Positions 3,733 to 23,303 of a DNA stretch of 23,303 nucleotides are shown piece after piece. Positions within the stretch are counted from its first letter, which is position 1; each line of letters opens with the position of its first letter. The DNA is taken from the IMG/VR virus record IMGVR_UViG_2859788636_000006. One strand, 5' to 3'. Origin of the DNA: a virus (lineage: Duplodnaviria > Heunggongvirae > Uroviricota > Caudoviricetes). The notes beneath the pieces were generated by a model. The model was given only the letters and a program-made list of their open reading frames with translations, did not search any database and had not been told where the DNA came from. The translations under genes were made by a program, and so were the position numbers.

Positions 3733-4086
3733 TTATGCCTCGCTTGTTACAGTCGTCTGGCCGTAGATTGTGTCAATGGAGGAAGTGAAGGTGACGCGAC
3801 GGCTGGTGCCGTCATAATTGGTATCGAAGGAAAGAATCGACAGAACGCCCGGTGTATCCTGTATGCGTTCGCGTATAGCCAGGATGTAGACATCTGATCG
3901 CTGCTTCCCAAGCACTGACTGAACATACGGCGTGCCTTCCGTCAGATCGAGAAACCACTGACCGCGCCACAGCTCGAAACGGGTTTTTACGGCCTGGGCG
4001 ACACATTCCGGACTGTCGATAAGGAAAGTATCGTCACCCTGGCCGAAAGTGTAATCGCCTTCAGTATCTTCGCGACGGTATCGCAT
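3733..4086 (-). CDS. Small baseplate wedge protein (gp25/gpW-like or XkdS-like, putative)
   Basis: 117-aa ORF; start overlaps the spike stop (TAATG); position between spike and baseplate J as in Mu/P2/PBSX-type baseplate modules. Confidence 0.5.
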   Translation of the reverse strand: MRYRREDTEGDYTFGQGDDTFLIDSPECVAQAVKTRFELWRGQWFLDLTEGTPYVQSVLGKQRSDVYILAIRERIQDTPGVLSILSFDTNYDGTSRRVTFTSSIDTIYGQTTVTSEA

Positions 4087-4826
4087 TATTGCGGCCCTCC
4101 GGTAGTTCCCCCGCCAGTCTGTACTCCGCCATGTTTATGCGTGGCGACACTGATACCAGAAGCTGTTACGTCATTCGTTACCATCACCGGCCCAAGCATC
4201 GTCGCAGTACCGCCGCTTTCGCCCATTCCCTGAGACAAGTTGCCATTAATCGTTACGTTGCCGTTCAGCGTGATAGTCGGGGATGTGATTGTCGTTCCAC
4301 CTTCAGCCGTAGCTGTAAGCTGGCCCGGTGTTTTAATGGTGATGTTATGTCCTGCGGCGACTTCTACAAACGCCGCACCATCATCGGTTCGCAGCTGCGC
4401 GGCGCTGGTACTGATACCGCTGATTTTCCGTGCTTGCGACTGCGGGCCAACGATGGCGAACGCATCAGATAAGTCATGCTGGCGCGGGTCGACGGTCTCC
4501 TGAACGCCGCCGCTCTGCCACCAAAAATCGATGCAACGGTCAGCAAAAATCAGGAGGCACTCGTCGCCTTCTTTTACCGGAAAGGTCAGCGTGCAACCGC
4601 CGCCGCGCGGGAAGATGACCGGCACATCCACCAGCGGTTTTAATTCGGTGGATCCATCGCCAACAATACCGCGTAGCGCCACCTCTACTGTGCAGGTAAC
4701 AGTCTCAGGATCGAACGACTGAATGATGCCGGGCATCGCTACGCGCATCTGGGTAGACACCGAATCGGCAATGGCCTGCGCGGTCTGCTGCTCACCGCCG
4801 ATCTGTGATTGAGTTGGAATTGGCAT
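4086..4826 (-). CDS. Baseplate central spike protein (gpV / Gp138-N-like OB-fold with Gly-rich C-terminal region)
   Basis: 246-aa ORF; N-terminus MPIPTQSQ...MPGIIQSFD typical of spike N-domains; C-terminus Gly/Thr-rich; GGGGG Shine-Dalgarno 4 nt upstream. Confidence 0.6.
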   Translation of the reverse strand: MPIPTQSQIGGEQQTAQAIADSVSTQMRVAMPGIIQSFDPETVTCTVEVALRGIVGDGSTELKPLVDVPVIFPRGGGCTLTFPVKEGDECLLIFADRCIDFWWQSGGVQETVDPRQHDLSDAFAIVGPQSQARKISGISTSAAQLRTDDGAAFVEVAAGHNITIKTPGQLTATAEGGTTITSPTITLNGNVTINGNLSQGMGESGGTATMLGPVMVTNDVTASGISVATHKHGGVQTGGGTTGGPQ

Positions 4827-4834
4827 AAAACCCC

Positions 4835-4860
4835 CATAAAAAAACCAGCCGAAGCTGGTT
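4835..4860 (-). terminator. Intrinsic terminator on the minus strand (7-bp stem, UUCG tetraloop, 7-8 U tract), 17 nt upstream of the spike start codon
   Basis: Minus-strand RNA AACCAGC-UUCG-GCUGGUU followed by UUUUUUUAU; read directly from the sequence. Confidence 0.6.
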
Positions 4861-5048
4861 TGGTATCAATTATCTCTTAGTAACTAAGCTACATCAGTGT
4901 GAAGTAAGGCTTTTCCGCTGCAATGGCACACATTCACAAGGTGTATTAGGATATGTTTGCAACAAGTAAGCATTGAAAATCAATTTCAGCCATGAAGCCG
5001 CCATAGAGTGGACCTGCACCATCGCATTATTGACTACAGGAGTAACAA

Positions 5049-5339
5049 ATGGGATTTAGATTTCGTAAAAGAATCCGGATTGCGCCCGGACTCGCGATCA
5101 ACATTAGTAAAAGCGGAGTAAGCACTTCAATTGGTGGTAAAGGTTCCACCATTAACATCGGGAAAAAAGGCGTAAAGATGACAAATGGCCTTCCCGGCAC
5201 GGGGCTGTCGCATACCACTAACCTTTACTCTCCCGGGAAATCGACAGAAAAAAAACAACTTACTCATAAGCAAAAAATAATTAGAAACATCCTGTTCGTA
5301 ATTATTGTGTTTATAATAATTAAAGCTCAATATTTTTGA
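5049..5339 (+). CDS. Small C-terminally membrane-anchored protein with DUF4236-like N-terminal motif; insert cargo gene of unknown function
   Basis: 96-aa ORF; AGGAG Shine-Dalgarno 6 nt upstream of ATG; N-terminus MGFRFRKRIRIAPGLAINISKSGVSTSIGGKGSTINIGKKG matches the DUF4236 motif as recalled; C-terminal hydrophobic segment NILFVIIVFIIII; markedly AT-rich; opposite strand to all flanking phage genes; followed by a terminator. Confidence 0.7.
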   Translation: MGFRFRKRIRIAPGLAINISKSGVSTSIGGKGSTINIGKKGVKMTNGLPGTGLSHTTNLYSPGKSTEKKQLTHKQKIIRNILFVIIVFIIIKAQYF

Positions 5340-5344
5340 CGCAT

Positions 5345-5375
5345 GCCCGCCTATCTGGCGGGCTATTTTACTTTT
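5345..5375 (+). terminator. Intrinsic terminator for the plus-strand cargo gene (GC-rich hairpin plus U-rich tract), overlapping the 3' end of the convergent minus-strand gene
   Basis: GCCCGCC-tatct-GGCGGGC followed by TATTTTACTTTT on the plus strand, 5 nt after the stop at 5337-5339; on the minus strand the hairpin is followed by an A-rich tract, so termination is likely plus-strand only. Confidence 0.6.
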
Positions 5376-5707
5376 CGGCAGTCGTATGTTGCATACTGAC
5401 GCGGCGAATCCATGCTGGCTTGCAGCCACTGTGCGTTGAGAATGGCTTTGCCGTTTCGATTGATGTACTCAAGACCAACCCATCTTCCAGGCTGATCGGT
5501 AGCCATACGCCAATCCATCTTGATATTGTTATAATCGCCTTTGTTTTTCAGGAAGGTGATTTTTTGCATTTCTGGCTTTGCGCCATTGATTCTGGCTAAG
5601 CCATCATCTGCCCAATGGATTTTAAAATCACCACATTGCTGATCCGCAAAAGCGGGTGCTGATATAAGCACCGCGAACACGGTAACAGTGCAAAGTAAAT
5701 GTCTCAC
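5363..5707 (-). CDS. Secreted/periplasmic protein of unknown function (signal peptide, two Cys), embedded in the baseplate module
   Basis: 114-aa ORF with GTG start 12 nt after the hub stop, preceded by a GAGGTGG Shine-Dalgarno; N-terminus MRHLLCTVTVFAVLISAPAFA-DQQ is a canonical Sec signal peptide with AxA-type cleavage site; Cys near the mature N-terminus and near the C-terminus; GC lower than flanking structural genes. Confidence 0.65.
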   Translation of the reverse strand: MRHLLCTVTVFAVLISAPAFADQQCGDFKIHWADDGLARINGAKPEMQKITFLKNKGDYNNIKMDWRMATDQPGRWVGLEYINRNGKAILNAQWLQASMDSPRQYATYDCRKVK

Positions 5708-5719
5708 GGCCCCACCTCA

Positions 5720-6784
5720 CTAATTCGTCGTCCCTTGCATTGCTTTCGGGCTATAAAGATCACGAGCGCCACGCGCAAAACACATCAAATCCATGTACCA
5801 CGCCTGACCTCTGGTGTCGCCAGTATAGTCGATAGCTTTGACGATATAAACGCCATCCGTCGCAATGCTGGCAGCCTGTGACGTCGTGCCGGTCAGCACA
5901 CGGTTGCCGTTCTCTTCTGTTTCGGTGATACGCCCGGGCGACTGTGCTATTTCGCTATTGCCGAGCGTGGCGCGGTACACCGAAGCCTGATCGAGCTGGA
6001 TAAGACCATTAATACGGATGTTTGGGTTTATCAGGCATCGCACGTTTACTCCGCCACCCATCGTTTGTTGCGGCATACCGATCAGGCCAGTATTGGCATT
6101 CAACACAATGGCTTCGTGAATATATTTATCCTCCGGCACCATCTGGACCTGACCATCCACCAGTTGCCATGTCGCTTTGCACTGCGCAGCAATATTATCC
6201 ATCACGTTGCGGCTGGATGAGTAAATCGCGCGGCCACGAGGAAACACGGTATCAGGAAAATCGCCGGTAATGCCCTGTGTCACGCCGAACGCGTTGAAAT
6301 CCTGCATCGTCGCCCGGTGCAGATCCGCAACGGTATATCCAGCGGCAAGCGTGGTGATGGTGGTCGCATAGAGGAACGCTTCGTGATCACCAATGGCCTG
6401 AATCAACACCCAGGAATCCGTAATGTTGTCCTTCCCGGTGACGGTGAAGCGAATATCACCGTCAAAAATCAGGCCGTAGTTCTGACCGTTCACCTGCCCT
6501 ATCTGGTCTGGTGAAATCTCCCGGGACACACCAACCTGGCTCGCATCAACATCCGGCGCTATACCGTCATACCCGGCAATGATGCGAATTTTGGCAAACT
6601 CCTGCCCAAGTATCTTGTTCGTGGTATCGGTCGAAAGGTTGTAAATTTTCACGTTCGCCACGCGCGGCCAGCGTGTGTCTGCCCACTCGATCTGGAACGT
6701 GACCTTAAAGTCAGACAGGGAAACGCCCTGCCCGTTCTGGTCCAACAGTTGCAGCTCAAAATGGCGCATCCAGTTAAGAGACAT
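5720..6784 (-). CDS. Baseplate hub / tail assembly protein (gpD / XkdQ / Mu gp44-like, putative)
   Basis: 354-aa ORF in the position between tape-measure-proximal genes and the spike; assignment by synteny and size. Confidence 0.45.
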   Translation of the reverse strand: MSLNWMRHFELQLLDQNGQGVSLSDFKVTFQIEWADTRWPRVANVKIYNLSTDTTNKILGQEFAKIRIIAGYDGIAPDVDASQVGVSREISPDQIGQVNGQNYGLIFDGDIRFTVTGKDNITDSWVLIQAIGDHEAFLYATTITTLAAGYTVADLHRATMQDFNAFGVTQGITGDFPDTVFPRGRAIYSSSRNVMDNIAAQCKATWQLVDGQVQMVPEDKYIHEAIVLNANTGLIGMPQQTMGGGVNVRCLINPNIRINGLIQLDQASVYRATLGNSEIAQSPGRITETEENGNRVLTGTTSQAASIATDGVYIVKAIDYTGDTRGQAWYMDLMCFARGARDLYSPKAMQGTTN

Positions 6785-21297: not shown

Positions 21298-21366
21298 TGA
21301 AGTGGCACACTGAATTTGGCCACCTGAACAGAGGTGATATGCTCACCTCAGAACAACACAGGTGCT

Positions 21367-22538
<1,172 letters not shown>

Positions 22539-22547
22539 CCACTTCAA

Positions 22548-23303
22548 ATCCGAAGAAAATTGCCGGACAAACCGCTCGCTGACATATCAACGAAAGAGGT
22601 GGCAGCAATGCTAAACACCTACGTAGCAGAAGGTAAAGCGGCTTCCGCAAAATTAATCAGGTCAACCCTTGTTGACGTTTTTCGTGAGGCAATAGCCGAG
22701 GGGCATGTAGCAACGAATCCGGTAACAGCAACCCGCACAGCAAAGTCAGAAGTAAGGCGCTCAAGGCTGACAGCTAATGAGTATGTCGCGATTTACCATG
22801 CAGCCGAACCTCTCCCAATCTGGCTGAGGCTAGCAATGGATTTGGCTGTCGTTACAGGGCAGAGAGTCGGCGATTTGTGCAGAATGAAATGGTCAGACAT
22901 AAACGACAACCATCTTCACATTGAACAGAGCAAAACAGGGGCTAAGCTCGCCATTCCGCTGACGCTAACGATTGACGCGCTCAATATCTCATTGGCTGAT
23001 ACACTACAGAAATGCAGGGAGGCCAGCAGCAGTGAAACTATAATCGCATCAAAGCATCACGATCCGCTTTCCCCGAAAACAGTATCGAAGTATTTTACAA
23101 AGGCGAGAAATGCATCAGGACTCTCATTTGATGGAGACCCGCCAACATTCCATGAACTGCGTAGCCTGTCGGCGAGGCTATACCGTAATCAGATTGGCGA
23201 TAAGTTTGCTCAACGTCTTCTCGGACATAAATCAGATTCAATGGCGGCGCGGTATAGGGACAGCCGTGGACGGGAATGGGACAAAATTGAAATCGACAAA
23301 TGA
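22548..23303 (+). pseudogene. int: Lambda-like tyrosine integrase, 5'-truncated by the IS911-like element (catalytic domain only)
   Basis: Translation (IRRKLPDKPLADISTKEVAAMLNTYVAEGKAASAKLIRSTL...HELRSLSARLY...LLGHKSDSMAARYRDSRGREWDKIEIDK) closely parallels phage lambda Int from about residue 110 to the C-terminus; frame is open back to the IS end; the N-terminal arm-binding domain is absent. Confidence 0.9.

Follow-up and report, generated by a model that had tools for sequence, protein, structure and literature searches.

The stretch of DNA examined here (IMG/VR record IMGVR_UViG_2859788636_000006; 23,303 nucleotides, referred to below as the window) is an enterobacterial prophage, and within its structural block a short gene for a 96-residue protein of the DUF4236 family is read from the plus strand, antisense to its surroundings. 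Over positions 4000-6500 the window is 99.3% identical to E. coli TOK-001, in which the element adjoins yciI/tonB and combines lambdoid early and lysis genes with a contractile tail (DUF3383/DUF3277 sheath and tube, baseplate J and gpV). From the tail-fibre genes to the terminase, all annotated genes of TOK-001 lie on the other strand except the DUF4236 gene. Two further long plus-strand open reading frames (ORFs) of the window, 9830-10189 and 15461-16132, have no Pfam match and overlap minus-strand genes; the DUF4236 gene is the only credible plus-strand gene in the structural block. An earlier note on this DNA, made from its letters alone, had pointed to the same gene as antisense and alone on its strand, with a match to the core of DUF4236, a single C-terminal hydrophobic helix, a strong Shine-Dalgarno motif and an intrinsic terminator of its own. 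These observations are all confirmed by the results that follow, and the product is very probably an accessory, tail-anchored membrane protein; the interpretation that the note attached to them is partly supported, its abortive-infection or exclusion effector, expressed from the prophage, being conjectural.

The translation of the ORF, MGFRFRKRIRIAPGLAINISKSGVSTSIGGKGSTINIGKKGVKMTNGLPGTGLSHTTNLYSPGKSTEKKQLTHKQKIIRNILFVIIVFIIIKAQYF, matches the sequence quoted in the earlier note exactly. Pfam-A assigns it to DUF4236 (PF14020) with 73.6 bits (E=1.8e-20) against a curated gathering cut-off of 27 bits, residues 3-55 covering positions 1-54 of a 55-position profile. The N-terminal positions that are invariant in the family (M1, P13-G14, N18, K21, G29, G32, P49-G50 and G52, as judged in a 57-sequence alignment that includes the query and in a 22-sequence alignment of the core) are all present. 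The gene is ordinary in kind and already annotated in public genomes: identical copies, including that of TOK-001, carry the RefSeq label WP_000506880.1, ‘DUF4236 domain-containing protein’; the protein is 99% identical to an E. coli cluster of 83 member sequences (P0001), and copies identical at the protein level occur in at least 11 IMG/VR viral contigs. It is a further member of the DUF4236 family and of the small membrane-protein morons encoded in tail operons. Nine PHROG families match the protein, all nine of unknown function, and NCBIfam has no match to it. Against the diverged E. coli alleles described below, 0.29-0.35 of synonymous sites (pS) and ~0.02 of nonsynonymous sites (pN) differ, and the resulting pN/pS of ~0.06 points to strong purifying selection on the gene. 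This ratio, together with the 6,561 database proteins matched by a profile of the core, argues that the ORF is not a chance one.

An AlphaFold2 (AF2) model built on the 57-sequence alignment, with a mean pLDDT (predicted local distance difference test score) of 85, divides the protein into a core, a linker and an anchor (Table 1). The core strands span residues 7-12, 15-20, 23-30, 33-38, 41-48 and 53-60, and conserved hydrophobic residues (I9, I11, L15, I17, I19, V24, I28, I35, I37, L48 and L53) alternate in them with polar or basic positions throughout the family. One face of the sheet is hydrophobic and must therefore be buried, against lipid or another copy. Residues 1-58 carry a net charge of +10, a value close to the family median (~+10). 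The linker evolves fastest: it holds three of the four amino-acid differences from one allele (L006), and between lineages the linker and anchor are only 13-56% identical, compared to 76-81% for the core. The anchor contains the Kyte-Doolittle (KD) maximum of a 17-residue scan, 2.57 at residues 77-93, no other segment of the protein is hydrophobic, and AF2 places a helix at residues 73-95 (block pLDDT 88-96). A beta-barrel pore, considered as a use for the strands, was rejected: at 6-8 residues in the AF2 model they are too short to cross a bilayer. Among solved structures and predicted viral structures, no informative relative of the core was found other than DUF4236 proteins themselves.

The N-terminus is the basic, conserved MGFRFRKR and has no signal peptide, and residues 1-76 carry a net charge of +14. 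According to the positive-inside rule, the positively charged side of a membrane protein stays cytoplasmic, and the charge of residues 1-76 fits a predicted N-in topology. An indirect pointer comes from 167-residue homologues in Vibrio and Photobacterium, in which SH3_3/SH3_4 domains follow the helix. From charge and homologue layout combined, we infer that the 96-residue protein would likewise be oriented N-in.

The cassette carries its own signals for translation and for the end of transcription. The ACAGGAG motif that contains the Shine-Dalgarno sequence also precedes the Klebsiella-type allele (sequences of loci L008 and L006 compared). The terminator stem (folding energy -16.7 kcal/mol; z = -2.8 relative to shuffled sequences) is followed by TATTTTACTT, and its 3' arm overlaps the stop codon of a convergent gene for a 114-residue protein. 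Equivalent hairpins follow the DUF4236 alleles at three other loci (L036, L049 and L102), and terminator-like hairpins are enriched about 3-fold after DUF4236 genes: they follow 11 of 69 such genes and 47 of 777 neighbouring ORFs (p=0.005). Upstream of the gene, the best sigma-70 candidate of a custom scan scores 8/12 (ATGGCA at 4923-4928, an 18-nt spacer and TAGGAT at 4947-4952); the Klebsiella-type allele has a 10/12 candidate.

The gene occupies an exchangeable cargo slot between the baseplate hub genes and the 114-residue gene on one side and the spike gene gpV on the other. In alignments with the relatives ET791, CX12 and strain 81, the flanks are 91-96% identical; similarity ends within a hairpin upstream of gpV (~4847) and returns at the stop codon of the 114-residue gene (~5363). 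GC content is 0.40-0.45 over 4800-5550 compared to 0.53-0.59 in the flanking baseplate genes. Between conserved flanks the slot holds five types of cargo. In addition to DUF4236, these are a 116-residue protein with one transmembrane (TM) segment (46-70), unannotated, in ET791 (L002 4043-4393, plus strand) and CX12 (L003); a 106-residue signal-peptide protein in strain 81 (L004 3885-4205, minus strand); a 181-residue protein without a signal peptide in LR-33 (L007 2275-2820, minus strand); and a 128-residue signal-peptide protein in Citrobacter phage Omnitron (L185 1379-1765, minus strand). The 116-residue protein matches Pfam EACC1 (PF19953) marginally (24.0 bits vs a cut-off of 23.6) and has a plus-strand hairpin of its own; the 106-, 128- and 181-residue proteins gave no Pfam match where tested. 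Four of these five are thus directed to the envelope, DUF4236 included. At the ET791 slot, RefSeq annotates instead a 53-residue minus-strand ORF that overlaps the start of the 116-residue one.

No relative with an empty slot was seen. A search for insertion scars found no flanking repeats of note around the cassette, and exchange has therefore probably proceeded by recombination in the conserved flanks. Because relatives, including the bona fide phage Omnitron, carry unrelated cargo in its place, the DUF4236 gene is dispensable for this type of phage. The cassette is a moron-type accessory unit: a replaceable extra gene with deviant GC and its own terminator. Morons are described as genes that differ in GC from their surroundings, carry a promoter and a terminator of their own and are expressed from the repressed prophage (PMC3594210). 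Expression of the DUF4236 gene in the lysogen is something we only infer.

Exchangeable as the slot is, DUF4236 is an old resident of it across phages of E. coli, Klebsiella, Hafnia and Serratia. The cassette is carried by 19 of 5,426 complete E. coli genomes and a diverged allele (~70% DNA identity in the core) by 34 more; both diverged alleles that were examined are antisense and occupy this slot, next to the spike gene. Eight of the dereplicated loci from IMG/VR and GTDB genomes have DUF4236 in the slot, always antisense (L022, L036, L049, L058, L069, L074, L078 and L102): seven cluster on gpV/gpW and the eighth, L058, joins them through the hub and the 114-residue gene. Klebsiella phage RCIP0034 has the same arrangement. 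Identity to the protein of the window is 49-69% for the DUF4236 proteins of Hafnia-, Serratia- and Klebsiella-type phages, whose baseplate proteins are 46-85% identical, and in a distant lineage with baseplate proteins only ~20-25% identical the slot still keeps a 177-residue DUF4236 protein whose core is 64-66% identical. This long residence across genera, the exchangeable slot, the RefSeq annotation and the bounding of this prophage copy by insertion sequence (IS) elements were all absent from the earlier note.

Table 1. Positions of the DUF4236 cassette, its parts and surrounding features in the window.
Feature	Position	Strand	Basis and remarks
DUF4236 tail-anchored protein, coding sequence	5049..5339	+	ATG start, 96 residues, stop TGA 5337-5339; ORF list, translation, Pfam, pN/pS
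DUF4236 core, residues 3-55	5055..5213	+	Pfam envelope; six short amphipathic beta strands
Low-complexity polar/basic linker, residues ~61-73	5229..5267	+	AF2 coil, pLDDT ~60; fastest-evolving part
C-terminal hydrophobic helix (tail anchor), residues ~74-96	5268..5336	+	KD scan, AF2; at most ~3 residues beyond helix
Shine-Dalgarno AGGAG	5038..5042	+	6 nt before ATG; sequence
5' untranslated/promoter region	4862..5037	+	Only weak sigma-70 candidates
Intrinsic terminator	5345..5373	+	7-bp all-GC stem-loop 5345-5363 and T-rich tail, 6 nt past stop
Variable cargo cassette/low-GC island	4847..5362		Alignment with ET791, CX12 and strain 81; GC
Terminator-like hairpin 4842-4861 and T7	4835..4861	−	Directly upstream of gpV ribosome-binding site; scan, alignment
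gpV, baseplate spike/assembly protein V (P2 gpV-like)	4086..4826	−	RefSeq; NCBIfam phage_P2_V 50.7 bits
114-residue signal-peptide protein	5363..5707	−	Translation in relative; phrog_3443; low GC
IS1 transposase	1-504	−	Left end of window
IS3-family orfA/orfB pair	21334-22535	+	Right end, straight after small terminase and HNH genes
Phage-integrase fragment	22560-23303	+	Follows IS3-family pair

Beyond this slot, the family is large and its members look alike. A search with the single sequence returns 192 relatives, and the profile that reaches 6,561 proteins was built from a 58-residue core. In 109 of the 120 best single-sequence matches, the core is followed by a 17-residue window of strong hydrophobicity, and the best 120 of the 6,561 profile matches are all 60-102 residues long; on these two samples the short tail-anchored form is the dominant architecture. 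Variants exist: P0057, in which DUF4236 is fused to an FtsK gamma DNA-binding domain and the helix is missing, a fusion to TPR, several forms of 200-400 residues with no further Pfam domain, and core-only forms in jumbo Brevundimonas phages. The 167-residue DUF4236-TM-SH3 gene of Vibrio diabolicus and a related contig (L020/L021) lies in a region resembling an integron-type cassette array, a run of small, mostly unannotated genes on the same strand, with an acetyltransferase, an ankyrin protein, DUF4238 and a PLD-type restriction endonuclease among their products.

The close homologues are overwhelmingly found in phages and prophages and not always in housekeeping settings, which would have spoken against the earlier note, and the family as a whole occurs in phages of both Gram-negative and Gram-positive hosts. 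Placement at junctions of the tail module recurs: a lambda-like Leclercia prophage has DUF4236, in antisense, between the tape measure protein gene and gpM, P. syringae B728a has it between gpK and gpJ, and in C. difficile phiCD38-2 it separates the tail chaperone gene from the tape measure gene, which is where HK97 has gene 15; in Pasteurella phage Pmp2 it is close to the baseplate hub. Other settings occur too: a tail-anchored homologue of 83 residues is encoded by a virulent Klebsiella phage of 142 kb, among RNA ligase, NrdA-like and helicase genes. Flank orientation at 69 dereplicated loci, counted from crude gene calls, is opposite on both sides at 16, mixed at 31, the same on both sides at 19 and one-sided at 3. 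A DUF4236 gene next to hin was reported in a 5-kb Salmonella 4,[5],12:i:- prophage remnant with three tail proteins (PMC8049487); this incidental mention is the only one found in the papers searched, where queries with PF14020 and accessions gave only Plasmodium gene identifiers, and no account or solved structure of the family came to light.

The earlier note had proposed that homologues be searched for recurring partners. None recurs in phages: the genes around DUF4236 at 16 further loci are of several kinds, with tail, terminase, portal, helix-turn-helix regulator, toxin-antitoxin (RelE/MqsA), KilA-N and integrase genes among them. A partner does appear in one chromosomal clade: nine Hyphomicrobiaceae loci (L139-L173) have a gene for a HerA-like ATPase (PF05872, 6e-200) and, a short way downstream in the same orientation, a DUF4236-TM gene (e.g., L141 4370-5881 and 6001-6297), and these DUF4236-TM proteins share a conserved HWWQPKWF tail. 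In the two loci examined, the flanks differ (UvrC/PurB at one, catalase/GMC oxidoreductase at the other) and the pair stays together, making it a candidate two-gene unit. The DUF4236 module is therefore not confined to mobile elements, and the pairing hints, as a lead only, at a link with DNA-translocating ATPases.

What would such a protein do for the prophage? The reading we favor, at a probability of roughly 0.35-0.4, is that it acts in the inner membrane of the lysogen in superinfection exclusion or another form of defence. This reading rests on the recurrent placement in tail modules, the moron features of the cassette, the envelope-targeted cargos of the slot and an analogy with HK97 gp15. 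The product of the founding moron, an extra gene in the tail operon with its own terminator, gp15 blocks genome entry from the inner membrane (Cumby et al. 2012, as summarised in PMC3594210). The likeness lies in a small, single-pass membrane protein encoded by a dispensable extra gene with a terminator in a tail operon, and it extends to position, HK97 gene 15 and the phiCD38-2 DUF4236 gene being found at the same junction. The two differ in build and orientation: gp15, a YebO-family protein of 62 residues, is anchored at its N-terminus and has a helical tail, whereas the DUF4236 protein has 96 residues, a C-terminal anchor and a beta-sheet domain; gene 15 is co-oriented with the tail genes and the DUF4236 gene is antisense to them. 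Exclusion has been demonstrated for gp15; for the DUF4236 protein it is proposed by analogy.

In this proposal, the cassette would be weakly expressed in the lysogen and would not depend on late transcription. The C-terminal helix (~74-96) would insert post-translationally into the inner membrane, exposing almost nothing to the periplasm, and the short flexible linker would tether the N-terminal DUF4236 domain to the cytoplasmic face, where its basic six-stranded sheet may lie on the acidic lipid surface or self-associate. From there, the domain would disturb a membrane-proximal step of infection by an incoming phage, as HK97 gp15, P22 SieA and T4 Imm do. SieA is a phage inner-membrane protein of 162-164 residues with three predicted TM segments that acts alone (PMC10883804), and T4 Imm is a phage-encoded, single-protein inner-membrane block to injection (PMC11436027). 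Genes of this sort are not confined to temperate phages, as both Imm and DUF4236 show. The targets of SieA and Imm are conduit proteins that span the periplasm or the membrane, whereas DUF4236 is predicted to expose essentially only a cytoplasmic domain. A resemblance to Tai, the tail-assembly-interference system, was considered and rejected: Tai sits upstream of the packaging module, and a search through the text of its paper turned up neither DUF domains nor transmembrane segments.

Several results weigh against an exclusion role. With ~3 residues in the periplasm, the protein could reach the tail of an incoming phage inside the bilayer or from the cytoplasm, but nowhere else. Across phyla the core is very strongly conserved, with 64-81% identity where baseplate proteins are 20-70% identical; such conservation suits a universal ligand, whether lipid, nucleic acid or a host protein that is itself conserved, better than it suits an arms race with tail proteins. 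Upstream of the gene, a promoter scan at a threshold of 9/12 found no plus-strand sigma-70 promoter, and no candidate in the custom scan is conserved across alleles or lineages. None of the 5,027 defence models of PADLOC-DB v2 matches the protein at E<=1, and there is no homology to HK97 gp15/YebO (no BLASTP alignment; hhalign probability 0.9%). Finally, exclusion is not the sole role of the module, since homologues lie in early or DNA-metabolism clusters of virulent phages and in the chromosomal HerA pair.

A bolder version, which we regard as doubtful, is that the tail-anchored DUF4236 proteins form a very large, unrecognised family of single-gene exclusion factors that temperate and virulent phages carry across bacterial phyla. 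Working from the cytoplasmic face of the membrane, they would target a universal step in the entry of genomes or the translocation of DNA, as the HerA-like pairing and the FtsK-gamma fusion hint. Some junctions of the tail module, the gpV/hub slot among them, would be dedicated docking sites for envelope-acting cargo.

The alternative that holds up best, though still unlikely, makes the protein a helper of the lytic cycle that tethers nucleic acid or a DNA-handling ATPase to the membrane and works early or in replication, packaging or assembly. The membrane-anchored DNA-binding protein p16.7 of phi29 offers an analogue in principle. A very basic domain (+10) would suit such a tether, as would the fact that DUF4236 kept its place in the slot through a divergence of the baseplate proteins to 20-25% identity. 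The company kept by homologues points the same way: RNA ligase, NrdA-like and helicase genes in virulent Klebsiella phages, jumbo Brevundimonas phages that retain the core alone, the HerA-like ATPase of the Hyphomicrobiaceae and the FtsK gamma domain of P0057. Yet in this lineage the gene runs against the late operon and ends in a terminator of its own, which would hardly be expected of a helper of the lytic cycle; relatives and Omnitron swap in unrelated cargo, so that the gene is not needed for virions, and phages provide no fixed partner gene.

Moron features, i.e., the terminator and the GC content, are also compatible with a lysogenic-conversion factor that has nothing to do with defence and alters host stress tolerance, division or transport for the benefit of the lysogen. 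The host-directed roles known for morons are diverse (PMC3594210), the conservation of the core points to a host target that is conserved too, and the family also occurs outside phages. We nevertheless consider conversion distinctly unlikely, as no neighbourhood indicates a host pathway or partner, and the repeated placement in tail modules and next to the spike gene would have no obvious meaning.

The abortive-infection effector raised in the earlier note is quite improbable. Such a toxic membrane protein would be inert in the lysogen and would damage or depolarise the membrane once superinfection is sensed. A small membrane protein in an accessory slot of a prophage is a reasonable candidate, and an amphipathic sheet could perturb a lipid surface. 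The EACC1-like alternative cargo, from a family of conflict-system membrane modules, also counts here: like DUF4236 it is a single-TM protein encoded in the same slot, on the same strand and with its own hairpin. The two are unrelated in sequence, however, the match to EACC1 is marginal, and the effector domains that usually go with EACC1 are missing from both cassettes. The gene stands alone in phage contexts, with no sensor, antitoxin or partner, and PADLOC has no match. The anchor helix is uniformly hydrophobic with no polar face to line a pore, and the strands are too short for a barrel. Stable carriage in many genomes, strong purifying selection and presence in virulent phages fit a toxic effector poorly.

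That the ORF is a silent relic, unexpressed in a prophage copy that may be defective, as the lack of a convincing promoter and the bounding IS1 and IS3-family elements might suggest, is very improbable given an intact reading frame, Shine-Dalgarno motif and terminator, identical proteins in other viral contigs and a pN/pS of ~0.06.

The value of the finding lies in the family rather than in this one gene: thousands of proteins share its architecture and recur at tail-module junctions, none of them characterised, and a function for the 96-residue E. coli protein could give Pfam DUF4236 its first. If exclusion is borne out, the hub/spike junction of this myovirus lineage may prove a hotspot for exclusion genes, which would help in reading prophage cargo and in predicting host range for phage therapy.

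The copy of the prophage in the window is bounded by IS elements (Table 1) and is thus probably truncated, rearranged or defective: where the window has the IS3-family pair and the integrase fragment, the intact TOK-001 element has lysis and lambdoid early genes. The source itself is absent from the 5,426 complete E. coli genomes, in which the best match reaches 94.5% identity over 80% of the window.

The 114-residue protein encoded next to the cassette has a clear signal peptide (MRHLLCTVTVFAVLISAPAFA/DQQ) and two cysteines and is perhaps periplasmic. Its gene is kept beside the slot in five lineages, on the late-operon strand, which puts a secreted protein amid baseplate genes; a single-sequence AF2 model (pLDDT 39) was unusable.

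On the gpV side, a terminator-like hairpin is found in every slot variant with a different stem sequence each time: the structure is kept and the sequence is not. It is possibly an insulator that keeps transcription of the cassette out of the tail genes in the lysogen; late transcription, presumably antiterminated, would be expected from lambdoid biology to read through it. A candidate isrK small RNA on the minus strand of the same region (4839-4921) was rejected, its Rfam match having 23.4 bits against a gathering score of 50 and broken pairs, and the region folding no better than shuffled sequences (z +0.88); within this stretch, it is the terminal hairpin alone that holds.

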